Positions 5,577-40,546 of a stretch of 44,903 bases of DNA are shown one piece after another. Source of the DNA: Candidatus Zambryskiibacteriota bacterium (GTDB taxonomy: Bacteria > Patescibacteriota > Minisyncoccia > Phycocordibacterales > WO2-35-19); assembly GCA_043799105.1 (NCBI GenBank), contig JAZDOB010000031.1, positions 1-44,903 on the forward strand. Direction: 5' to 3'. Positions within the stretch are counted from its first letter, which is position 1, and each line of letters starts with the position of its first letter. Under the pieces are notes generated by a model. It was given only the letters and a program-made list of their open reading frames with translations. It searched no databases and was not told the DNA's origin. Both the position numbers and the translations under genes were made by a program.

Positions 5577-5649
5577 TCCGCCCAGTAGGAATCGAACCTA
5601 CGACCATTTGCTTAAAAGGCAACTGCTCTACCGACTGAGCTATGGGCGG
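5577..5649 (-). tRNA. tRNA-Lys (anticodon UUU)
   Basis: The reverse complement folds as a cloverleaf: acceptor CCGCCCA/TGGGCGG, D arm GCTCAGTCGGTAGAGC, anticodon loop CTTTTAA, T arm GTAGGTTCGATTCCTAC, discriminator A. No encoded CCA. The 1:72 pair is C:G. Confidence 0.85.
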
Positions 5650-11921: not shown

Positions 11922-12362
11922 TTATAAACTGTTTATGCTTATTTTCCTCTCCGTTTCAGAAACATGTTCAAATTTTATCACAATATGCTTTGGCAAGATT
12001 TTGGCAATGCGTTCCGGCCATTCTATGCAAATCAAATTTTTAGGGTCGGCAATAATTTCATTCCAACCCAGATTCAACATCTCTTCTTCTTTTTCTATCC
12101 TGTACGCATCTATATGTATAAGTTTATCAAAGGAGAGGTTGGGGGTGAGGTCATATATTTTCTCAATAACAAAAGTGGGGCTTTTGATTGTTTCTTTAAT
12201 TCCAAAATTTTCAGCCAAATATTTCATAAAAGTAGTCTTGCCACTTCCCAACTCTCCATACAATCCTACAATAGTCGCCACTTTTTCGTTGGATTTGAGG
12301 TTATTGGCAAAACCGGTGGCTATTTCGGCTGTTTCTGCCACACTTTTAGATAAAAACTCCAT
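11922..12362 (-). CDS. tsaE: tRNA t6A37 biosynthesis ATPase TsaE
   Basis: GELGSGKTTF P-loop, SPTFVI, HIDAYRI and IEWPE motifs are typical of TsaE/YjeE. Confidence 0.85.
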   Translation of the reverse strand: MEFLSKSVAETAEIATGFANNLKSNEKVATIVGLYGELGSGKTTFMKYLAENFGIKETIKSPTFVIEKIYDLTPNLSFDKLIHIDAYRIEKEEEMLNLGWNEIIADPKNLICIEWPERIAKILPKHIVIKFEHVSETERKISINSL

Positions 12363-12440
12363 CCTGTTAGAAATAGGAAATATTATTTCCGTAGTTAATT
12401 TTAATATACCAGAATCTCGTTAGTATATTTCTAACGGGAT
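12361..12440 (-). repeat. TIR element copy A (80 bp)
   Basis: atcctgttagaaat (12361-12374) and atttctaacgggat (12427-12440) are inverted repeats. The left end shares its AT with the tsaE start codon. The 3' end in gene sense (ATTTCCTATTTCTAACAGGATG) resembles that of the GIY-YIG copy. Confidence 0.75.
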
Positions 12441-26883: not shown

Positions 26884-28233
26884 TCAACCTATAATAGATC
26901 TTATTTCTTGAATTTCTTTTAATAACAAACTGTCATTTATGATTTCGTTCTTTATCTTTTCATAAGAATGAATAACTGTGGTGTGGTCTCTGCCACCCAA
27001 TTTTTCTCCAATAGACGGATAAGAAATACTAAAATCCTCTCTTAAGATGTACATTATTATTTGTCTAGGTTTAATCACCTCCTTTTTCCTGGTTTTTTCA
27101 TATATAGATCCTTCTTCTATTTTATAAAAATCGGAAATTATTTTTACAACTTCTTTGTAAGACATCAATTTTTTTTGTTTGATGCTATTTTTAACCAAAT
27201 CCTTTACTTCATTCAGTGTAAGAGTTTTGTTTTTGGTTTCTGTCTGACAAACAATCAGATTTATAACACCTTCCAAGTCTCTAATATTTCCTTTTATAGA
27301 ATCGGCCAAATAATCCATAATAGCCTCATCTACAAAGAGATTTATGCTGGAGCATTTGGATTTTATTATGGCCAATCTTGATTCGTGGTCGGGAGCCGGA
27401 ATATCAATAACCATACCGGCGGCAAACCGGGATTTCAGACGATCTTCCAGGCCGGTAACGAAATTTGGATGTTTGTCACAAGAAAAAACAATGTGTTTAT
27501 TGTTGTCTTTCATTGTGTTAAAAATGTGGAATAGTTCTTCTTGAGTTTTTTCTTTGCCCGAAAGAAACTGGATGTCGTCCATTATGAGCATGTCGTATTT
27601 TCTATATTTTTCTTTAAATTGAACGACTTTGTTAGCAAGCATTGATGAGACAAATTCATTTTGGAATTTTTCGGAACTGAGATAATAAACTTTTTTTGAA
27701 GGATCAATAGCTTTTACCGCGTTGCCCATAGCTTGAATGAGGTGGGTCTTGCCGTGGCCAGTGTTTCCATAAATAAAGTAGGGATTATAGGTTATGCCGA
27801 GATTTTTTATTACCGCCTGAGCGGCCGCATGGGCCAATTCATTAAAAGGCCCAACAATACACGACTCAAAAGTGTATCTGGGATTTAAATTATCGTCTTT
27901 ATTTACATAATATTCCGACAATGGCAACTCTTTAGTTGGGGACGATTGTTTGGTTGGTATGTATTGGTTTTTTGCTTTGCTCTCTTCTTTTATTACATAT
28001 TCAAGTGTATGTATTGATTCGCAGGATTGCCGAAGAAGTTTTAAAACAAGCCCGTGGAATTTTTTCATTAACCACTCTTGAACGAAAGTATTGGGGACGC
28101 TCAAATAAATTACCCCATTATCAAAACCGGAGATTTTGGTTTCCTTAAACCATGTCGCAAAATTTGCTTTGGAAACCGAAGTTTCTATCTCCAGCAAAAT
28201 ATTGTTCCAGAGTTCTTTGGTGTCCATGTGCAC
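26884..28233 (-). CDS. dnaA: chromosomal replication initiator DnaA
   Basis: GNTGHGKTHL Walker A, LIMDDIQFL, domain IV (GGRDHTTVIHSYEKI). Start ATG 28233 or 28227. Confidence 0.95.
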   Translation of the reverse strand: MHMDTKELWNNILLEIETSVSKANFATWFKETKISGFDNGVIYLSVPNTFVQEWLMKKFHGLVLKLLRQSCESIHTLEYVIKEESKAKNQYIPTKQSSPTKELPLSEYYVNKDDNLNPRYTFESCIVGPFNELAHAAAQAVIKNLGITYNPYFIYGNTGHGKTHLIQAMGNAVKAIDPSKKVYYLSSEKFQNEFVSSMLANKVVQFKEKYRKYDMLIMDDIQFLSGKEKTQEELFHIFNTMKDNNKHIVFSCDKHPNFVTGLEDRLKSRFAAGMVIDIPAPDHESRLAIIKSKCSSINLFVDEAIMDYLADSIKGNIRDLEGVINLIVCQTETKNKTLTLNEVKDLVKNSIKQKKLMSYKEVVKIISDFYKIEEGSIYEKTRKKEVIKPRQIIMYILREDFSISYPSIGEKLGGRDHTTVIHSYEKIKNEIINDSLLLKEIQEIRSIIG

Positions 28234-28248
28234 ATTATATATTCAAAT

Positions 28249-28301
28249 CGTGTTTAGGGAACTTGTGTTTATTGTCAATTGTGTTTATAATTTGTGAATA
28301 A
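28249..28301. promoter_or_regulatory. DnaA-box cluster (oriC candidate / dnaA control region)
   Basis: TGTGAATAA (28293-28301) matches TGTGNATAA perfectly. Two TTGTGTTTAT repeats at 28263-28272 and 28279-28288, and cgtgtttag at 28249-28257. AT-rich dnaA-rpmH intergenic region. Confidence 0.55.
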
Positions 28302-28337
28302 CGAGTTAATAATTTTTAAGAGCTAACTTCTAATAGG

Positions 28338-28472
28338 ATGTCAATTACGTATCAGCCCCAAAAAAGGAAAAGAGCCAAGACCCATGGTTTTTTGAAGCGC
28401 AGCAAGAGTGCAAATGGTTTAAGAGTGTTAAAGAGGCGTCGTCAAAGGGGCCGCAAGAGAATATCGGTCTAA
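28338..28472 (+). CDS. rpmH: 50S ribosomal protein L34
   Basis: 44 aa, MSITYQPQKRKRAKTHGFLKRSKSANGLRVLKRRRQRGRKRISV. Not in the ORF track (too short). Confidence 0.9.
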   Translation: MSITYQPQKRKRAKTHGFLKRSKSANGLRVLKRRRQRGRKRISV

Positions 28473-28478
28473 TATCCA

Positions 28479-28802
28479 ATGCTTCCCAAAGACAGGAGAA
28501 TTCCAAGAAAAATGTTCCCATTGTTATCGAGTGGGGCTAAAACGTTCAAGAATAACCTTTTTTTGTTGAAATTTGTGCCCCAAAATGACCAATCTAGATT
28601 TTGTTTCTCGGTTTCCAAAAAAGTGGCCAAAAGCGCGGTGGTGCGAAACAGATTGAGGCGAGCCGGTTATAGATTGTTAGAAAAATATATTCCCAAAATA
28701 AAACCCAACGTTCTCGCCACCTTTTCTTTCAGGGTTGTGCCAAAAAACAACGATGATATTATTAAAAATCTTGAATCAATATTAAATGATAGCCTTCTTT
28801 AA
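28479..28802 (+). CDS. rnpA: RNase P protein component
   Basis: 107 aa, basic; FSVSKKVAKSAVVRNRLRR (RNR motif). Position after rpmH. Confidence 0.88.
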   Translation: MLPKDRRIPRKMFPLLSSGAKTFKNNLFLLKFVPQNDQSRFCFSVSKKVAKSAVVRNRLRRAGYRLLEKYIPKIKPNVLATFSFRVVPKNNDDIIKNLESILNDSLL

Positions 28803-29526
28803 AACCATAATTTATATACCGCTTTATAACATCTTGGTTCTTATGTTAAACGTGAGCTGGATTGATGTCGGTATTGCCACTGTTATTTTAACCGTACTGG
28901 TTAAAATGATTCTCTACCCTCTCGCCAAAAAATCTACCGTTGCTCAGGCCAAGATGAAAGAAAAAGAAGGAGAACTTTCTCTAATAAAAGAAAAATATAA
29001 AGATAAACAGGAGCAAGCGGTAAAAATAATGGAATTTTATAAAACCAACAAAATCAATCCCTTTTCCAGTATTTTGACAGTTATTATCCAGATTCCTATC
29101 ATTTTCTCTCTCTACTTCATATTTTTTAAATCCGGTCTACCCGTGATTGATGAGAGCCTTCTCTACTCTTTCATAAAAGTGCCGGTATCTGTGTCTATGA
29201 ATTTCTTGGGCTTATTGGATGTCTCTCAAAAAAGCATTGTCTTGGCGTTTCTGGCTGCTATCACCAGTTTCTGGCAAATGCATTTGGCTTCTAAATCAAT
29301 TAAAAGTAATCAGGGCAAGCCCAATTTTGCCAAGACCCCGCCGGGCAGAGAGGATTTTTCTCAGATAATGGCCAAACAAATGAAATATACTATGCCACTT
29401 ATCGTCTTTTTTATTTCTTGGAAAATATCAGGCGTGGTAGCTCTCTACTGGTTTGTCAGCAACTTGGTTGGTATTGCCCAAGATGTTTATGTAAGAAAGC
29501 AGATGTCCAAAGTTTCTCTTTCATAA
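28786..29526 (+). CDS. yidC: membrane protein insertase YidC (short form)
   Basis: 246 aa, YidC/Oxa1-like helices (LVKMILYPLAKKS, NPFSSILTVIIQIPIIFSLY). rpmH-rnpA-yidC synteny. Confidence 0.85.
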   Translation: MIAFFKTIIYIPLYNILVLMLNVSWIDVGIATVILTVLVKMILYPLAKKSTVAQAKMKEKEGELSLIKEKYKDKQEQAVKIMEFYKTNKINPFSSILTVIIQIPIIFSLYFIFFKSGLPVIDESLLYSFIKVPVSVSMNFLGLLDVSQKSIVLAFLAAITSFWQMHLASKSIKSNQGKPNFAKTPPGREDFSQIMAKQMKYTMPLIVFFISWKISGVVALYWFVSNLVGIAQDVYVRKQMSKVSLS

Positions 29527-29621: not shown

Positions 29622-30863
29622 TTACTCTGCTATTCGGAGCATCCACAAATAGCCATCTATTTTATTACGGAAAATGAGATGGGTTTCGTCGGGAGGGGCA
29701 CTCATATCAACAACATCAATCTTTTGGTCAGACAAGGAGGAGAGATCGGCTATATTGCTGAATATGTTATTATTCAAATCTATTTTTTCTATAAAATCTT
29801 CGGTTGAAACCAATCCTTTGTACCAAATATCGGGGTAATTGCCGTTTGGTATTTGGTTTGGCACGGCGCAATAAACGGAAAGAATCTTCTCTTTGAGCCA
29901 GACGCACTTCTCTGCCAAACTGTTCACGTTTAATTCTTTCAGAGTAACTTTTTTGTTATCAACCAGATATAATTGAGGATAAGCTCCGCCACTTGAAACT
30001 ATACTCAGAGACCCGTCTGGGTTTGGATTTGTGGAAATGCCGGACATGCCCACTCCTGTTTTTTTCAAAACCTTGCTTGATACATCAAAAGAATAATTGT
30101 ATCCGGTATCCACCGAACTTCCTTTGGTTTGCATAATCACTGTGTTTCCGGAAATCCATTTTGGCAACCATTCCGTAAGTGGATGTGTCATTACAGCAAC
30201 GGATCCTGTGCCGTCAGGATTAGCTGTAAACCATTTTGATGACCCGTTTGCTGTGTAGTAGAAAATTTTGGAACCGTCCGGCTTGATGGAGATTTCTTTT
30301 ATTCCTGTCGGCAACTTTCCTATCGTGGTGTTAAACGGAGTTAAACTTTCACTGGTGGTGCTGGCCTTGTTTTTATTTAATTTTACAAAACTGGTTTCTA
30401 TAATTTCACTTCCCGATTCCAAAGTCTGAGCCAGGAAACCACTGCCGTTTGGCAACCAAAAAGCCCTTATTATTTTGGGTATGGTGGTGTTGGTAAGTCT
30501 TTGGATGGCCAAAGAATCAGAAACGGCCTCATAAACGTTGCCTGTTCCTTTTTCTACAAATCTGACTACGCTTGTGGTGCCTACATTGAAAATCACGGCT
30601 CCGGCTACCGGCTCACTTGATAATCTTCGGAGTCTTGGTATTGGTTGGTCTGTCGGAATGATTGTTGGAGTTTCTTCCCCCGTGCCGGTTTCGTCGGTCG
30701 GTGTCTCTGTGCCGGTGTTGTCAGATCCAAATGGCAGGTAATCTCTTATGGAAAATCCCACTCTGCTTTCTCCCGGTGTTTGGGGTTGAGAACCAAAAAT
30801 CAAAAACAGAGCTACGCCCACAATCACCAGTATTCCTATTATTAATAGTATTTTTTTGGTCAT
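29622..30863 (-). CDS. membrane-anchored exported protein with PD40/TolB-like beta-propeller-type repeats
   Basis: N-terminal TM (ILLIIGILVIVGVALFLIF). Recurring (K/N)PDGS...motifs. The start codon is fused to TIR element B. Confidence 0.55.
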   Translation of the reverse strand: MTKKILLIIGILVIVGVALFLIFGSQPQTPGESRVGFSIRDYLPFGSDNTGTETPTDETGTGEETPTIIPTDQPIPRLRRLSSEPVAGAVIFNVGTTSVVRFVEKGTGNVYEAVSDSLAIQRLTNTTIPKIIRAFWLPNGSGFLAQTLESGSEIIETSFVKLNKNKASTTSESLTPFNTTIGKLPTGIKEISIKPDGSKIFYYTANGSSKWFTANPDGTGSVAVMTHPLTEWLPKWISGNTVIMQTKGSSVDTGYNYSFDVSSKVLKKTGVGMSGISTNPNPDGSLSIVSSGGAYPQLYLVDNKKVTLKELNVNSLAEKCVWLKEKILSVYCAVPNQIPNGNYPDIWYKGLVSTEDFIEKIDLNNNIFSNIADLSSLSDQKIDVVDMSAPPDETHLIFRNKIDGYLWMLRIAE

Positions 30864-30969
30864 CCCGTTAGAAATAGAAGATTACACACTCTCGTGCGCT
30901 CTCTTCTATTTTATTTAATCTGTTAATTGTGTTTATCATAATTTTAATCTTCGTGATTTCTAACGGGAT
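30862..30969 (-). repeat. TIR element copy B (108 bp, type 1)
   Basis: atcccgttagaaat (30862-30875) / atttctaacgggat (30956-30969). Its reverse complement matches copy D at 103/108 positions by my alignment. Confidence 0.85.
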
Positions 30970-30973
30970 CATA

Positions 30974-31861
30974 TTATTTAAATACGGTATGCCAGTGGGG
31001 CCCGGAAGATCCGGGAGTATTGGCGCTTTCATATACGAAGTTCACTTTTATCGTCTGCCCGTTTATTAATAGCGTTTTTTGACCGTTATTATCTTTTATA
31101 TATTTATCAAGTTCAGCGGATGGTCTAAGATCTAAGTTGGGTTGGCCGGGGCCATGCGATACGTGCCCCCCTTCTGTACCACCAGTAATTACTAGGCTAC
31201 CTCCGAAATCTTTTTGCAATTGTTCTAATCCACTAATTGCATTGGGCGGCAAACCAACTAGATTTGTACAACCACTTATTCCCCCGCTTATGCATGGGTC
31301 TGCGTTAACGGATATTTTCCCTCCGCTGTCATTCCAAAGTTTGTCTTTTAGCGCTGTATTTTCGGCTACTTGCGTGGCGCTAAGAGAATATCCCGGCAAT
31401 ACACCAGACAATGTTCCCTCTGATCCCGGTGGAGCGTTGGTGGTTGCCTCTTCTATATTCAGATTGAGCTCCAAAAGATTTGGGTTGATGGTGTAAAGAA
31501 TAAGCCAAGCGCCTATAACCAAAACCAAACCGAAGACAGCATTTTTTATCCTATCCTTGCCGGCGCTTTTACCGCTTATGGCGTCAGTTGATATGTATTG
31601 AAAACCGCCGATGACAATCATAAGAACGGCAGACACTGCCGCGATACCAACGGCCAGTTTAAACATTCCCGGCAAGTAATCTTTGAGTTCTGTTTTGGTG
31701 GCTGCTTGCTGGCAATTTTGGTCACTACCTATACAGGGCAATGGGGCCAAGACAGTGTAGCTGTTATCCGGAGTTTGGGCTTGGACAGAGACCTCAAAAG
31801 CAAACAAACTTCCTGTTGCGACCATTCCAATCATCAAAATCATTAAAATTATTCTTTTCAT
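30974..31861 (-). CDS. VirB2/TrbC-like two-TM segment fused to an M15-type (VanY-like) peptidoglycan peptidase domain (tentative)
   Basis: Signal peptide, then a hydrophobic hairpin (LAVGIAAVSAVLMIVIGG...VFGLVLVIGAWLILY). The C-terminal GHVSHGPGQPNLDL and GPHWH resemble the SxHxxGxAxD and HxH zinc ligands of M15 peptidases. Confidence 0.45.
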   Translation of the reverse strand: MKRIILMILMIGMVATGSLFAFEVSVQAQTPDNSYTVLAPLPCIGSDQNCQQAATKTELKDYLPGMFKLAVGIAAVSAVLMIVIGGFQYISTDAISGKSAGKDRIKNAVFGLVLVIGAWLILYTINPNLLELNLNIEEATTNAPPGSEGTLSGVLPGYSLSATQVAENTALKDKLWNDSGGKISVNADPCISGGISGCTNLVGLPPNAISGLEQLQKDFGGSLVITGGTEGGHVSHGPGQPNLDLRPSAELDKYIKDNNGQKTLLINGQTIKVNFVYESANTPGSSGPHWHTVFK

Positions 31862-31864
31862 TTT

Positions 31865-31945
31865 ATCCCGTTAGAAATTTATCTTGTAAGTGTTTGTTGA
31901 TTATTTTTAAGTATAGCGAGTATTTCATAGTATTTCTAACGGGAT
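31865..31945 (-). repeat. TIR element copy C (81 bp, type 2)
   Basis: atcccgttagaaat (31865-31878) / atttctaacgggat (31932-31945). The right end abuts the stop of ORF 31946..32959; the left end is 3 nt from ATG 31861. Its reverse complement is related to copy E. Confidence 0.85.
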
Positions 31946-32959
31946 TTATTCAAAACTCATTGTTAAACTATTATCCGCTTGTTGCAGAATGCGGTTGGTG
32001 TTTTCCATTCGCAAAGAGATGACGGACCTGCCGGTGGTTTTGTCTTCCGGTCTTCTGAAAACTGCAGTCCTAGAACCGGATAATCCCGGAATCGTTTGGC
32101 CGTTTAATGTCCATTCGTATTGTAAACCGCCGCCGCTCTCCTTGGTGAAAAAGTACGGAGCCGCCAAGATCTGAACTTCTTCTGTTTTCAAATTGAAAAT
32201 ATTGGCGATAGCCGACTCGAAAATATGGCCGTAATAGGGATTATTCTCGTAAAAAACTATTTCAGGATCAATCGTCGGAACATCTATAAAACCCTGAGCA
32301 ACCAAATTATTGATTGGGTCGGATATCAAGACCTGCAGGTTTTCACTTCTGCCAAATAATGACCCGTTTAGAACGAGTACATTTTTGCCGTAACCGGACT
32401 GGTCCTGGTATGATTCGGCATCGTTTGACCACTTGTAAACCAGATTTTCCGATGGCACTCTCCTGCCATTTTTGACAAACTCGGGCATGGCCACAATTTT
32501 CAGGACACCCTGTCTTGGGTGCAGAGCTTTGCCCCTATAGAAAGGCGGAACATACGAATTGGCTTCCCAAACCATATCAACACTGGCGGGAGTCAGTGAG
32601 AAGTTTTTTGAAAAAGAGACGCCATTTATAAGTTTGATGTTTACCTTTATATCCGTTTCTTTCCCGATGGGACCGGCATTGAATGAATATTTTATTTCTC
32701 CCTTACCGCTTAAGACCGTTTCGCCGTCTTTAGACCAAGTGATATCAGCCGAACTCAAGTCGCCAGTGTAAAGCTCAAGGTTTAAAAAAACCATCTCGTT
32801 AGGCCTCGGGTAATTGGGAATGATACCAACCCCGAGCTCATTGGAAAGAGCGTAGGGTATATCGATATTCAGACCGCCCATCTGAGCGCCGGAGACCGTC
32901 GGCAAAACTATCAAACAAACACCCGCCACCGCCAGAATTTTTATAAACTTGTTTGGCAT
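31946..32959 (-). CDS. hypothetical secreted protein
   Basis: 337 aa with signal peptide (ILAVAGVCLIVLPTVSGAQ). No family recognised. Confidence 0.55.
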   Translation of the reverse strand: MPNKFIKILAVAGVCLIVLPTVSGAQMGGLNIDIPYALSNELGVGIIPNYPRPNEMVFLNLELYTGDLSSADITWSKDGETVLSGKGEIKYSFNAGPIGKETDIKVNIKLINGVSFSKNFSLTPASVDMVWEANSYVPPFYRGKALHPRQGVLKIVAMPEFVKNGRRVPSENLVYKWSNDAESYQDQSGYGKNVLVLNGSLFGRSENLQVLISDPINNLVAQGFIDVPTIDPEIVFYENNPYYGHIFESAIANIFNLKTEEVQILAAPYFFTKESGGGLQYEWTLNGQTIPGLSGSRTAVFRRPEDKTTGRSVISLRMENTNRILQQADNSLTMSFE

Positions 32960-32991
32960 TTTTTATATTATATCATTTATCCTGTTTATTG

Positions 32992-33020
32992 TTCACCCGT
33001 TGTTGATAATGTTGTATACT
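32992..33020 (+). promoter_or_regulatory. candidate promoter of the rightward genes, upstream of TIR copy D
   Basis: TTCACC (32992-32997), 17-nt spacer, TATACT (33015-33020). An ATGAAT copy follows 7 nt downstream at 33028. Confidence 0.4.
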
Positions 33021-33031
33021 TGAATATATGA

Positions 33032-33139
33032 ATCCCGTTAGAAATCACGAAGATTAAAATCATGACAAACACAATTAGCAGATTAAATAAAATAGAAGAA
33101 AGCGCACTAGAGTGTGTAATCTTCTATTTCTAACGGGAT
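33032..33139 (+). repeat. TIR element copy D (108 bp, type 1)
   Basis: atcccgttagaaat (33032-33045) / atttctaacgggat (33126-33139). The last AT is the start of ATG 33138. Confidence 0.85.
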
Positions 33140-33413
33140 GAATTTAATGAATTTTGTTTCTCCCGGACTTATTTTTACTGTCCTTGCTCTGCTTGTCGTC
33201 TTTGGGTACTGGATATTCAATTTTATAATTCTTTACCATTTGCTTCGTTTTGGCATTGGTGTCCAGCCCAAAAAATTTGCCGCCGTTTTTCTACTGGGCT
33301 CCATCCTTCTCTTCTCTGTGAACGTTATGTTTTTTGCAAATATTAATTTAGATGATCTAAAAAACTTAAATGAAATCCCGTTAGAAATACCATTATTTAC
33401 TCTTAATGCTTAA
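33138..33413 (+). CDS. small membrane protein
   Basis: 91 aa with two hydrophobic helices. The last 13 codons and the stop lie inside TIR copy E. Confidence 0.5.
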   Translation: MNLMNFVSPGLIFTVLALLVVFGYWIFNFIILYHLLRFGIGVQPKKFAAVFLLGSILLFSVNVMFFANINLDDLKNLNEIPLEIPLFTLNA

Positions 33414-33454
33414 ATTAATCAACAAATATTTAATACTTAAATTTCTAACGGGAT
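33375..33454 (+). repeat. TIR element copy E (80 bp, type 2)
   Basis: atcccgttagaaat (33375-33388) / atttctaacgggat (33441-33454). The last AT is the start of ATG 33453. Confidence 0.85.
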
Positions 33455-34001
33455 GAAATCGTTCCTATCAATTTTTACAGCATCAAGTAATTCCTTTGAG
33501 GGCGAGGAAAATGGAGAAAAAGTCGTTTTACTTCTTCGCCGCCACCCCTTTTTTATTCTTGTCCGCATGTTCCTTTTCTTGTTTTTAGCTTTAATACCGA
33601 TAGCCGTTGGCATCGTGTTCCCCCTTTTCCTTTACTCACACAACCTTCTGGCCGCATTCCTTTTTCTTTCCGGTGTCTGGTATGTTTTTATATGGTCAAG
33701 CATTTTTTATGCTCTCACTATGTATACTCTGGACGTTTGGATCGTCACAGATCGCAGGATTATAGACAGCACGCAGAACGGATTTTTCAATCGGACAATT
33801 TCCGAGTTGCATTTAACCAGAATTCAGGATATTTCCGTCCAAACCAAGGGTGTTATTCAAACATTTTTCAAATTTGGCGATTTGCAGATACAAACCGCCG
33901 GCGCCGAAGAAAAATTTAAGTTCTCCCAGATTCCTCATCCGGTAAAAGTAAAGGACGAAATAATGAAATTAGCTTCTGCTCACTCGTCTCCCCATTTATA
34001 A
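33453..34001 (+). CDS. membrane protein with bacterial PH (YdbT/DUF304-like) domain
   Basis: Two TM helices, then WIVTDRRIIDSTQNGFFNRTISELHLTRIQDISVQTKGVIQTFFKFGDLQIQTAG, typical of bPH_2 domains. Confidence 0.6.
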   Translation: MKSFLSIFTASSNSFEGEENGEKVVLLLRRHPFFILVRMFLFLFLALIPIAVGIVFPLFLYSHNLLAAFLFLSGVWYVFIWSSIFYALTMYTLDVWIVTDRRIIDSTQNGFFNRTISELHLTRIQDISVQTKGVIQTFFKFGDLQIQTAGAEEKFKFSQIPHPVKVKDEIMKLASAHSSPHL

Positions 34002-38042: not shown

Positions 38043-40289
38043 CTACGGGTTAGTTGGGGGCGTCCCTCCTCCGGCCGGTTGTACCGAGGGTGTTGGTGAA
38101 GGGGCAGAAGCTGTTTCGGAAGTTTTCTCTTTTTCGTCTATTTCTTTTTGACTTTCTCTTGCTAAGTCGGCTATTTTTTCTGCCTTGGATTTTTCCCTAG
38201 CTTGCTCTCTGATTCCTCTTGCTGCGGCCTTATAGCCCTGTTTTGGTTGGAAAGGACCAAGCCATCTCGTTCCAAATAGTCCTTTGTCGAGTCTTTCCGC
38301 GTAAGCTCTTTGTCTATCACCACCCGCTTTATTGATTGCTTGTGTCTCTAGAGAATACTCGTCATCGTCAATATCTTTTTTATTCAATTTCTTCTTTGTC
38401 TCAGTTGCCACCCCCCTCTTTTCGTCAGCAACATCTTTTAATCCTTTATAAGCATTATCGTTTTCTTCTATTTCCTTTTCGGCCTCCTTTCTCATCTCTC
38501 TTTCGTTTGCCATTTTTGAAGTTATAGCCTCAAGTTCTTTGTCTATAGTTTCGACACTGGCTTTATCACCCGCTTCTTTGGCCTTTCTTAGTTCCTCTTC
38601 TTTGGCTCTCTTCTCGTTGTTTAATTCGCTCGATCGTTGCGCGTGTGGTTTTAGTTTTTCGTCCATATATTTCTTCCTCTCTTTTTCTGCTTTTTCTGCT
38701 TCCGCTCTTGCATTGGCTTCTTTTGCGGCTCTATCTGCTCTGATGCCCACCCCCTCTCTCTTCTTTCTATTTTCAAACTCTTCCTTCTCCGCACCCGTTT
38801 GTCCATAAACATCTTTGGCATACGCCGCTTTTGCTTTGGCTTTTTCGTCAACAGATTTTTGGAATCCTCCTTTGCCGGTTGCTTTTCCTGCAATGCCCAT
38901 CACTTTCTCGGCTCCAACGGCCTTACCTAATCCTGTGCCAGCTACACCCCTGACATCAAAGCTTCCTTTCTTTCCCTTATCTGCCACCCAAAGTCCAGCT
39001 CTACCGAGGGTAGATTTTGACCACTCTTCTCTTTTCTTTTCAGACACCAAACCAGATACTCTGCCCACGGTATTTCTTGTTGCCCAAGCGGTGCCACCCA
39101 TGGCAACACCACCAATTCCTCCAGAAATAGCCTTAAATGCCCCGCCGGTGGCGCCTTTGGAAGCCATTTGTTTGGAAAGTATAGGAGCGGCGATGGCGAG
39201 ACCAACTATTAGTGTAAAGTTGACAATCAGGGCCATGGCACTCTTCGGATTTGTCGTTATTTGAGAAAAAGTTGCTCCTGCAGGTTTTCCCAACGCTCCA
39301 AGAAGTGAATCGCCTACTTTGAAAACCACCCAAGTGAGGGCAAAATAAAGAGGAGCAAAAAATGATTGGGCAAGCAACGAATCCTTCCAATCCTCAAAGT
39401 GCTTTTTTTGCCCGGGAATAATGAAGGCGATTAAAGCCAGAGGAGAGAGAATCATTAAGAAAATAAGAATAATAAACCGAGCGAGAAACATTATGCCGGC
39501 CATCAAAAGCATAACGGCTGTAATAAGCATAAATACAGAACTCAAAATACCAAAGACCAATATCCCGGGAGCATCCAAATCGCCCGCTCCCAATACGTCA
39601 GTACCATAAAACGTATGCACGCCAAGCATATTTTCGTAACCGGCCGAAATACTCTTAACTTGCGTACCGTCACGTGTAATGGTATTGGAAGATATTGAAT
39701 TATAAAAACCGACAGCCACTATATTTGAGGCGTCAATGACCACTTTTGAAAAAAACAAACTGAAATTTATGAGAAGAGCTACGATGATTATATCTTTTAC
39801 TGTTTTGCCGAAGTTGCCAAAGTTTGTATCAAACATTGCCTTGAATGCGGCGAAGAGAAGAACAAATATAAAACACATATTGGCCACATCCCGTAGTGTT
39901 GCCCACGCTTTGGTGATAGCCCCTCCGACCCCGTTGGGGTCGCCTATATTTGTGGCCATGTTTACTATGCTGAACTCTACTACTTTATCAAATAGCCACC
40001 CGCTAATTCCCATTGTCCAGGACGATATTTTCATTAAAGTTTCAGCAATGCCAGTCGCTAATGCTTTAAATACAAAGTCGCCCGCCTTTTTTAATTGAGC
40101 GTCTGCTGCGACGCCAGCCACTGAAGGATTATTTTGATTTGTTATACAACGAGGAGGAACGGTAATAATATCCCATATACCGCCCGCAGCCCTGCAATCT
40201 GCCTCAGTTGATTGTCCAAACGCGACATAGGGAACTAAAATCCCCGCCAAAACAACAATCAATATTCCGAATGTAAGAAATTTTTTCAT
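38043..40289 (-). CDS. VirB6/TrbL-like polytopic membrane protein with long Lys/Glu/Ala-rich tail
   Basis: Signal peptide, at least 6 hydrophobic helices over aa 130-390, then a ~300-aa charged coiled-coil-like region and a Pro-rich end. Its ATG overlaps the GIY-YIG stop (ATGA). Confidence 0.55.
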   Translation of the reverse strand: MKKFLTFGILIVVLAGILVPYVAFGQSTEADCRAAGGIWDIITVPPRCITNQNNPSVAGVAADAQLKKAGDFVFKALATGIAETLMKISSWTMGISGWLFDKVVEFSIVNMATNIGDPNGVGGAITKAWATLRDVANMCFIFVLLFAAFKAMFDTNFGNFGKTVKDIIIVALLINFSLFFSKVVIDASNIVAVGFYNSISSNTITRDGTQVKSISAGYENMLGVHTFYGTDVLGAGDLDAPGILVFGILSSVFMLITAVMLLMAGIMFLARFIILIFLMILSPLALIAFIIPGQKKHFEDWKDSLLAQSFFAPLYFALTWVVFKVGDSLLGALGKPAGATFSQITTNPKSAMALIVNFTLIVGLAIAAPILSKQMASKGATGGAFKAISGGIGGVAMGGTAWATRNTVGRVSGLVSEKKREEWSKSTLGRAGLWVADKGKKGSFDVRGVAGTGLGKAVGAEKVMGIAGKATGKGGFQKSVDEKAKAKAAYAKDVYGQTGAEKEEFENRKKREGVGIRADRAAKEANARAEAEKAEKERKKYMDEKLKPHAQRSSELNNEKRAKEEELRKAKEAGDKASVETIDKELEAITSKMANEREMRKEAEKEIEENDNAYKGLKDVADEKRGVATETKKKLNKKDIDDDEYSLETQAINKAGGDRQRAYAERLDKGLFGTRWLGPFQPKQGYKAAARGIREQAREKSKAEKIADLARESQKEIDEKEKTSETASAPSPTPSVQPAGGGTPPTNP

Positions 40290-40546
40290 CCCGTTAGAGA
40301 CAGGAAATGTTTCAAACGAGTTTTAAGATATCGTTTGCCCATACCTGATTTTAAATACTTCTCTCTCGACCTCGCATCTCGTTCGTTTAACGAGGCTTCG
40401 TAATATATCAATTCATACGGACTTCGGCTTTTAGTGTAAGTTGATTTACCCTCGTTGTGTTGTTTGAAACGTTTCCGTAGATCAATCGTTGATCCTGTGT
40501 ATAAATAATTATTTTTCATACTTTTAATTACGTAAGTGTAGAACAT
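40286..40546 (-). CDS. small GIY-YIG nuclease-domain protein
   Basis: 86 aa. FYTYVIKS...YLYTGSTIDLRKRFKQHN...YYE...REKYLK matches the GIY-(10)-YTG, R and E/N motifs of the URI/GIY-YIG domain. Confidence 0.8.
   Translation of the reverse strand: MFYTYVIKSMKNNYLYTGSTIDLRKRFKQHNEGKSTYTKSRSPYELIYYEASLNERDARSREKYLKSGMGKRYLKTRLKHFLSLTG

Follow-up and report, generated by a model that had tools for sequence, protein, structure and literature searches.

Inverted-repeat units at gene starts

The 44,903-nt contig JAZDOB010000031.1, which is called the window here (all unit coordinates are window positions), carries six short units, A to F, that share a terminal inverted repeat and stand at the starts of genes. 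Scanning for the 14-mer ATCCCGTTAGAAAT with up to two mismatches gave 12 matches forming six inverted pairs, against a mean of 0.56 and a maximum of 3 matches in 100 shuffles, none of which reached 12; a search with an 11-mer core returned the same twelve sites. The mismatch scan reproduced exactly the six pairs that an earlier note on this DNA had listed. From our comparisons, we conclude that the units very probably represent one family of small mobile elements, in which F is the full-length form of about 280 bp carrying a GIY-YIG nuclease gene (40288–40568), and the others are gene-less (about 30–120 bp across loci):

A, 12361–12440, minus strand: gene-less, 80 bp, flanked by TGGA on both sides, before a TsaE-like gene (11922–12362).
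B, 30862–30969, minus strand: gene-less, 108 bp, in the ATGA start of a gene for a protein of 413 amino acids (aa) (29622–30863).
C, 31865–31945, minus strand: 81 bp, flanked by TAAA on both sides, 3 nt upstream of the ATG of a gene resembling type IV secretion system (T4SS) pilin genes (30974–31861).
D, 33032–33139, plus strand: 108 bp, 95% identical to B, in the ATGA start of a 91-aa membrane-protein gene (33138–33413).
E, 33375–33454, plus strand: 80 bp, decayed relative of C, in the ATGAA start of a 182-aa bPH_2 gene (33453–34001).

All six units lie directly 5' of an open reading frame (ORF) and are co-oriented with it, which bears out the fixed orientation to the downstream gene described earlier. 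In five of them (A, B, D, E and F) the terminal AT together with the next G forms the ATG of the downstream ORF, and at C the ATG comes 3 nt after the end of the element. The upstream 91-aa ORF now terminates inside E. B and D are reverse complements, identical at 103 of 108 positions and embedded in unrelated flanks, and C and E resemble each other in the same sense at 65 of 81 positions overall and at 70% of positions in the interior; both likenesses had been noted before, and they support at least two interior types within a single inverted-repeat family.

The full-length element F and its nuclease

The sense strand of F reads ATCCCGTTAGAGAC, 8 nt, ATG, the ORF and then CTG TCT CTA ACG GGA TGA. 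Its arms form a helix, P1, and a second helix, P2, lies within the ORF:

40288–40568, minus strand: element F, full-length copy with 5' arm, 8-nt spacer, GIY-YIG ORF and 3' arm within the last codons.
40286–40546, minus strand: GIY-YIG nuclease gene, 86 aa, single domain (Pfam PF01541, E = 1.5e-16).
40555–40568, minus strand: 5' arm of helix P1, ATCCCGTTAGAGAC.
40288–40301, minus strand: 3' arm of helix P1, GTCTCTAACGGGAT, which encodes SLTG and gives the AT of the next ATG.
40463–40476, minus strand: 5' strand of helix P2, ORF nt 71–84, codons 24–28, RKRF.
40303–40316, minus strand: 3' strand of helix P2, ORF nt 231–244, codons 77–82, abutting the 3' arm of P1.
40582–40599, minus strand: degenerate extra 5' arm, ATGAA followed by CCCCGTCGAGATC, then AAAAAT ATGATCTA, as read against canonical 5' ends.

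The 3' arm thus serves as the C-terminal codons of the nuclease (SLTG and stop), and TGA, the stop codon, overlaps with the start of the next gene, which encodes 748 aa (ATGA). The arms of F differ from the 14-mer at two positions (AGAGAC), yet they are perfectly complementary to each other. The earlier view of the family as small non-coding units only must therefore be abandoned, as F is a full-length form with a nuclease gene, and A and probably C are deletion derivatives.

PF01541 covers residues 1–68 of the nuclease, which has no further domain. Across 18 homologues there is no variation at the GIY, YIG, Arg, His and Glu positions, and the C-terminus RFLSLTG is conserved among homologues. 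NCBIfam returned only sub-threshold matches to this protein, namely a group I intron endonuclease model and UvrC, and a search of the PDB by sequence gave only 1zg2 (UPF0213; weak, E = 1e-5) and weak I-TevI matches. PADLOC detected nothing, and hence no link to a listed defence system was found. No known transposase class (DDE, HUH, serine, tyrosine or Cas1) is encoded by the full-length form, whose only ORF is that of the GIY-YIG nuclease. The degenerate 5' arm lies 33 nt upstream of the true one, and its outer flank is again ATGAA; from its sequence it looks like what is left of an older copy, or like a 5' end duplicated in part. This second arm explains why the left flank of F looks aberrant (TCTA).

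Origin of the gene-less copies

As its sequence reads, A is visibly an internal deletion of the nuclease gene: it runs ...ATTAACTACGGAAA, a 5-nt loop and TTTCCTATTTCTAACAGGAT, which corresponds to nuclease codons 21–25 joined to codons 81–86. It keeps ..CTACGGAAA, a short loop and TTTCC, that is, P2 as a local hairpin, followed by the 3' arm. The mini-ORF of C, MKYSLYLKIINKHLQDKFLTG and stop, looks like the N-terminus of the nuclease fused to its C-terminus, which suggests that C, with its decayed relative E, is probably also an internal-deletion derivative of the full-length element. The interior of B and D gave no convincing evidence of an origin from the nuclease gene and is specific to this genome; in B, it contains an internal hairpin stacked on the 3' arm. 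Another genome locus (L006) carries two 116-bp copies that are identical at 115 of 116 positions and have unrelated flanks. As this pair and the pair B/D (95%) are so alike at unrelated sites, the short forms must have been copied recently.

Two covarying helices

Among 73 full-length elements, the arms pair in 86–100% of cases over 14 positions and in 1% one position further out. For covariation, an alignment of 52 full-length elements was used, with 28 helix pairs (1456 cells, in which G·U was counted) and 500 shuffles as the control. The P1 arms are paired in 97% of cells, and partner permutation supports this pairing. In P2, ORF nt 71–84 (codons 24–28, RKRF) pair with nt 231–244 (codons 77–82, RLKRFL), and the helix ends one base before the 3' strand of P1. 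Overall, the 28 pairs are formed in 94.8% of cells as compared with 86.0% in the shuffles (0 of 500 as high), cells with a double change number 148 versus 42, and compensatory change is seen at 16 pairs; controls with slid partners pair in 29–48%. Part of the covariation in P2 is synonymous, between the third positions of K25 and R80 (Fisher p = 1.5e-8) and of R26 and K79 (p = 1.1e-8). Synonymous sites vary freely outside the helices, are frozen in codons 84–86 and are strongly restricted in R24 (CGG) and F81 (TTC). In short A-type copies, P2 persists as a local hairpin in which four of the five pairs show compensatory changes, and B and D have a different hairpin at this position. This pattern of substitutions indicates that P1 and P2 are kept by compensatory change.

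Folding of the units as single-stranded DNA gave z-scores of -5.2 to -5.8 for B to E, -3.6 for F and -1.8 for A. Conserved RNA helices normally tolerate G·U pairs. Here, G·U occurs in only about 25 of the 1456 cells and is rarer than plain mismatches, so that a constraint on DNA pairing is favoured. The suggestion that the arms would form a stem in read-through mRNA is accordingly modified: the few G·U pairs point at least equally to folding at the DNA level, and a role in mRNA may exist as well. For the folding of the element as single-stranded DNA, this evidence is suggestive, not decisive.

Empty sites, flanking duplications and start codons

Twelve loci syntenic with the T4SS-like region of the window (L081–L092) were obtained by a homology scan of metagenome contigs, with the 337-aa protein encoded between C and D (p337) as the query. 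Their proteins are 53–71% identical to the query, and their gene order is virB4, p147, (p182, p91), p337, p295, p413. Presence/absence polymorphism at orthologous sites, a test set beforehand, was found for four of the units. Site B is empty in seven loci (L081, L082, L083, L085, L087, L089 and L091), with ...GAATAAAATATGAGCAAAAAAATA in L083 facing ...TAATATGACCAAAAAAATA in the window after removal of B. Site C is empty in ten loci (among L081 and L083–L092), site D in three (L081, L083 and L085) and site E in two (L081 and L083). The empty sites hold one copy of the flanking repeat, and removal of an element together with one repeat yields the empty sequence. As B, C, D and E are lacking in syntenic relatives in this way, they are precise insertions. 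L082 has a different copy a few bases off site C, with arms ...AGAGTTTT/AAAACTCT..., which represents an independent second insertion; deletion of this copy and one repeat in silico gives GAGTTTTGAAAATTCTGATG, compared with GAGTTTTGAAAATTAATATG in the empty L081. B, D and E sit within the ATGA of the host start codon, and C lies a few bases upstream of it. The density of elements differs strongly, with one in about 66 kb of L081–L092 and six in 45 kb here.

The genes p91 (small membrane protein) and p182 (bPH_2) form a divergent pair (window 33138–34001) that is located between p147 and p337 in L081 and L083/84; p91 is also present in the short contig L085, and the pair is missing from L086–L090. 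It is a variable two-gene module in a conserved T4SS-like locus, and both of its starts carry an element here. A motif, GTTGATAAT(G/A)TTGTATA(C/T)T, is kept about 12–24 nt upstream of the p91 start in all relatives (window 32960–33031; L081, L083, L085). It may be a promoter of a very short or leaderless mRNA, in which case D would lie just after the 5' end of the transcript.

The reading of the ends that fits all cases is a 13-bp inverted repeat (TCCCG...CGGGA) with a direct repeat of 3–5 bp. In most copies the flanking repeat is TGAA, and identical 4-nt flanks occur in 34 of 55 full-length copies. Rare flanks are matched on both sides, namely TGGA (A, L052 and a short copy in L074), TGAG (L056, L068), TAAA (C) and TGCAA (L032), and further matched flanks are TGAAA (E) and TGA (B, L031, L074). 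Three other readings were tried and rejected. A 14-bp repeat with a fixed 2-bp duplication (GA) fails for the flanks TGAG, TGG and TGA. A right-hand TGAA carried by the element, as at the right end of IS608, and a template-switch model both have against them the matched rare flanks on both sides and the junction of B.

Junctions were counted in 56 full-length copies of the TCCCG type. The 3' junction forms an ATG in 53 of them, and this ATG opens an ORF of at least 60 codons in 49 of the 53, compared with 24% at random ATGA sites. The left ATG is kept in 42 of the 56, often behind a Shine-Dalgarno-like GGAG or AGGA, and is in frame into the nuclease in 22; one left flank is GTGAA, which is a GTG start codon. 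None of the full-length copies surveyed is antisense to its host gene. As read from these junctions, the target of the TCCCG subfamily is usually ATGAA at the start of a host gene, and the last A of the element and the duplicated TG rebuild the ATG. Copies of a CCCCG-armed subfamily, most of them from Omnitrophota and Thermodesulfobacteriota, are bordered by TTTA or TAAA and stand elsewhere than at start codons. To some extent at least, the element itself therefore determines which target is chosen.

Distribution

The nuclease has at least 4995 homologues; among the matches listed, identity is 73–88% and many Patescibacteria lineages are represented. In a search of 1.84 billion cluster representatives (clusters at 50% identity), 7140 clusters matched at E <= 0.001. 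The homologues have 86 or 95 aa, and the longer forms begin with MNPVRD, the translation of ATG-AATCCCGTTAGAGAC, i.e. the 5' arm preceded by ATGA; they arise where the old start codon, behind the ribosome-binding site of the host gene, is in frame with the nuclease. For comparison of flanks and arms, 80 nuclease loci were taken from species-representative genomes. Most of them contain the same unit, with the consensus ATGAA, TCCCGTTAGAGAy, 8–9 nt, ATG, nuclease, rTCTCTAACGGGA, TGAA and host gene, the element extending from TCCCG to CGGGA; the unit thus recurs beyond the window, in several phyla. Additional gene-less pairs lie near nuclease genes in these loci. Hosts are Patescibacteria, Omnitrophota, Thermodesulfobacteriota, Bdellovibrionales and one contig binned as Woesearchaeota. 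The element is common in ultra-small bacteria of the candidate phyla radiation (CPR). Clustering near the T4SS-like locus, which the earlier note had pointed out, does not hold as a specific association, since other genomes carry the element before many unrelated genes. In the window and all fetched loci (L001–L094), unit sizes fall at about 275–285 bp for full-length elements, with a mode of 100–120 bp for shorter ones and minimal hairpins of 28–80 bp.

Viral contigs contained no relatives of the nuclease and only two short copies, and hence no evidence was found for carriage by phages. A tblastn search of plasmids gave three YazA-like matches in Firmicutes and no proteobacterial Ssn-like match. 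Exact-protein look-ups for two window proteins returned no record, and literature searches found no account of a CPR GIY-YIG transposon or MITE (miniature inverted-repeat transposable element) like the present one.

Several individual loci deserve mention. On the IMG/VR contig L094 (3734–3829), a short element flanked by TGAA encloses a 28-nt hairpin copy of the CCCTG type that is itself flanked by TAAA on both sides; this compound unit speaks for insertions nested in one another and for derivatives reduced to a hairpin. In L060 (2981–3382) and L062 (6–407), a full-length element is followed in tandem by a 120-bp gene-less copy, with a common TGAA in between. The tandem sequence is identical in a Woesearchaeota-binned contig and a Saccharibacteria-labelled contig, which reflects either a wrong bin or a very recent transfer. 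A short-element subfamily (L004, L006, L014, L038, L039, L040, L045 and L068) has a stem extension, CGCGATCGC...GATCGCG, after a 4-nt bulge, and this extension is conserved across genomes of different lineages. In the clusters P0274 (400 aa), P0140 (600 aa) and P0154 (655 aa), the nuclease is fused to a host protein, one of them annotated as an integron integrase. These fusions are probably annotation artefacts caused by read-through from an in-frame element at the host start codon.

Comparison with known systems

The closest parallel is the Ssn system. Ssn proteins (CDD family cd10448) have about 94 aa and a single GIY-YIG domain. They bind the NTS/SRM hairpin when it is single-stranded DNA and in no other form, and they cleave immediately upstream of it, also when the halves of the hairpin are on separate strands (Chenal et al. 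2025, Nat Commun, PMC11893778). The stem of the NTS is TTCCCGCG/CGCGGGAA, ssn genes are flanked by repeats (NTS-ssnA-NTS) with hundreds of extra copies elsewhere, and the authors remarked on the layout resembling that of an insertion sequence (IS), mobility not being demonstrated in that study (PMC11893778). Both systems have a single-domain GIY-YIG protein of about 90 aa (86 aa here), TCCCG/CGGGA in the stem, an association of the nuclease gene with its own repeat, and many gene-less copies. They differ in that here one hairpin is split around the gene, which lies in the loop with a coding 3' arm, whereas the Ssn flanks are self-contained hairpins of 20–50 nt. The repeated motif stands on both sides of the nuclease gene here, as the two halves of one hairpin, and minimal hairpin copies of 28–50 nt occur in other loci. 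In addition, the present element has a 13–14-bp stem with a second helix within the ORF, and empty sites, flanking duplications, the start-codon position and restoration of the ATG were not described in the Ssn paper. The hosts, which are CPR bacteria, Omnitrophota and others, lie outside the RefSeq survey of the Ssn paper. Relative to Ssn, the novelty lies in the architecture, in the empty sites, in the position at start codons and in the range of CPR hosts. The earlier statement that the structure matches no known repeat holds insofar as Rfam at gathering thresholds returned only a tRNA-Lys (5577–5649) in the window and none of the units, and as the family is not REP/BIME, ERIC, Correia, RUP or attC; it no longer holds in that the related Ssn system has been described (PMC11893778).

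The element also shares features with other small genetic units. UPF0213 proteins (Escherichia coli YhbQ, Bacillus subtilis YazA, Bacillus halodurans BH0048, PDB 1zg2) are small and single-domain like the nuclease, but the plasmid-borne YazA-like matches are only 42–48% identical over about three quarters of the protein. UPF0213 genes are single-copy housekeeping genes that are not known to have flanking repeats. With IS200/IS605 and REP/RAYT systems, the element has in common a very small size, one small nuclease-type protein, many gene-less hairpin derivatives, hairpins that may be recognised as single strands here too, and a fixed orientation to a short, non-palindromic target. Those systems, however, use HUH/Y1 enzymes with covalent intermediates, and their hairpins are separate and subterminal, with neither terminal inverted repeats nor target duplication, whereas here the enzyme is a GIY-YIG nuclease, the ends pair with each other and 3–5 bp are duplicated. 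The short copies resemble bacterial MITEs such as the Correia elements of Neisseria in their length of 80–150 bp, terminal inverted repeats, short target duplication, location at gene junctions, co-transcription and stem in read-through RNA. Correia elements differ in their 26-bp repeats, TA duplication, lack of a known autonomous partner and absence of any start-codon logic; in the present family the full-length partner was found, and at least some short forms (A and probably C) arose from it by deletion. Like free-standing homing genes such as T4 Seg, the element places a GIY-YIG gene between host genes, co-oriented with them and using host expression signals, but homing enzymes have a DNA-binding domain and spread to allelic sites only, by homologous repair, and they lack terminal repeats, duplications and gene-less derivatives.

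Proposed mechanism and alternative explanations

We tentatively propose that the nuclease drives movement via a single-stranded hairpin intermediate, a step that is possible without being the likelier outcome. The strand of the element, once single-stranded, would fold into the P1+P2 hairpin, which by analogy with Ssn would be the substrate of the element's own nuclease. The nuclease would cut the hairpin at its foot while DNA is being replicated, repaired or taken up, and cleavage would start either copying or excision and re-insertion, to be finished by host repair or replication; gene-less copies would be mobilised in trans. Insertion would do the host hardly any harm, because the ATG is rebuilt and termination-reinitiation at ATGA could allow translation of the downstream gene. 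In addition or instead, the terminal helix may fold the insert out of the mRNA, so that the old ribosome-binding site is kept beside the new ATG. Blended into one account, the family and this mechanism are in our view a probable explanation of the six units.

A number of observations weigh against this account. Neither a circle nor an excision junction was seen in the sequences analysed. We know of no strand transfer by GIY-YIG enzymes, which hydrolyse DNA, and, acting alone, the nuclease therefore does not qualify as a classical transposase. Flanking duplications are typically left by a staggered insertion into double strands and not by the IS200/IS605-type single-strand route, and the flanks are unequal in about a third of the full-length copies. 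The arms of F have AGAGAC where those of A to E have AGAAAT, and F may not mobilise them. The position at start codons could result from selection against other insertions and not from targeting. The nearest detectable named relatives of the nuclease are of the UPF0213/YazA type. The SRM motif (HGTCWY N0-2 YYVSBRH N0-5 WNVSBRG N0-2 RNCYNB) gave 0 matches on both strands of the window.

One alternative is a domesticated, Ssn-like host system, in which the nuclease and its repeats would serve the cell, for example by cutting incoming or replicating single-stranded DNA at marked sites and thereby controlling transformation and recombination, as proposed for Neisseria, with repeats spreading only occasionally. 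In its favour, purifying selection acts on the nuclease across phyla, a T4SS/pilus-like locus is present in the host, and CPR bacteria are thought to take up DNA. The Ssn precedent (PMC11893778) likewise speaks for such a system. We nevertheless consider it unlikely in view of the precise insertions with flanking duplications and empty orthologous sites, the near-identical gene-less copies at unrelated sites, an occupancy that differs strongly between relatives (one in about 66 kb versus six in 45 kb) and the location of the nuclease gene within the repeat unit itself. An ordinary free-standing homing endonuclease gene, spread between alleles by homologous repair, with short units decayed in place and an incidental inverted repeat, is highly unlikely. 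GIY-YIG enzymes are classic homing endonucleases, the best NCBIfam match is the group I intron endonuclease model (far below its cutoff), and there are orthologous host genes that carry the element in more than one genome (L005/L008 and L058/L072); yet the 86-aa protein has no DNA-binding domain, the element precedes dozens of unrelated genes that have only ATGAA in common, gene-less copies are 95–99% identical at unrelated loci, flanking duplications are present, and the arms and P2 show covariation, for which homing has no need.

The position of every copy, sense-oriented at a gene start so that its stem would lie at the ribosome-binding site and start codon, together with the stability of the folds, would also suit units that are primarily cis-acting RNA structures and not mobile DNA, be it as hairpins controlling translation, as split ribosome-binding sites or as sites of RNase III processing. 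We attach a very small probability to this explanation, since the same 13–14-nt sequence occurs before unrelated genes across phyla with presence/absence polymorphism and duplications, the structure encloses a nuclease gene, G·U pairs are nearly absent, which is unusual for conserved RNA helices, and Rfam gave no match. An effect on RNA may be a secondary property that makes insertions tolerable. Integron attC recombination sites are brought to mind by the imperfect palindromes of 60–140 bp between co-oriented genes, by GTTAGA/TCTAAC in the arms, similar to attC core sites, and by the homologue cluster with a fusion annotated as integron integrase. The probability that the units are attC sites is negligible, however: the core order is GTT...AAC on both strands, the reverse of RYYYAAC...GTTRRRY; attC sites lie at the 3' ends of cassettes, whereas the units stand at gene 5' ends with flanking duplications and enclose a nuclease gene; no integrase was seen among the ORFs read at 28–42 kb and 10.5–14.5 kb, with only eight ORFs scanned against Pfam; and the integrase fusion is explained by read-through from an element at the start codon of that gene.

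Other features of the window

An unrelated 13-bp inverted pair, TCCTGATGAATTT...AAATTCATCAGGA, which spans 67 bp overall (43128–43194), was found by the inverted-repeat scan. At 26884–29526, dnaA (minus strand) lies beside the divergent rnpA-yidC (plus strand) with a gap of 245 bp (28234–28478). This gap may contain the replication origin, which would be useful for tests of strand bias of the element.

Significance

To our knowledge, no active transposon family has been described in Patescibacteria. The present family would be a CPR mobile element new to the literature, which is very small, has six copies in 45 kb and has thousands of relatives. It provides a concrete case for the question left open by the Ssn paper of whether pairs of nucleases and hairpins are mobile elements. 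It could even represent the first class of prokaryotic transposable elements driven by a GIY-YIG nuclease, a suggestion that we make with reservation: a DNA hairpin of about 280 bp with the gene in its loop, which would move through a single-stranded intermediate, target start codons, hide its insertion by a rebuilt ATG and by translation coupled to its own stop codon, and be the missing mobile ancestor of the Ssn/SRM repeats. Insertion at start codons combined with regeneration of the ATG and overlap of stop and start would be a rare harm-reducing strategy. The element explains recurrent annotation artefacts, namely the 95-aa forms beginning with MNPVRD and the nuclease-host fusion proteins, and its covarying helices within a coding gene offer a clean case of DNA structure and protein code in one sequence. 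Nucleases recognising a 13–14-bp stem of variable sequence could extend the toolbox for single-stranded DNA, and a natural element of this small size could help the genetics of CPR bacteria.

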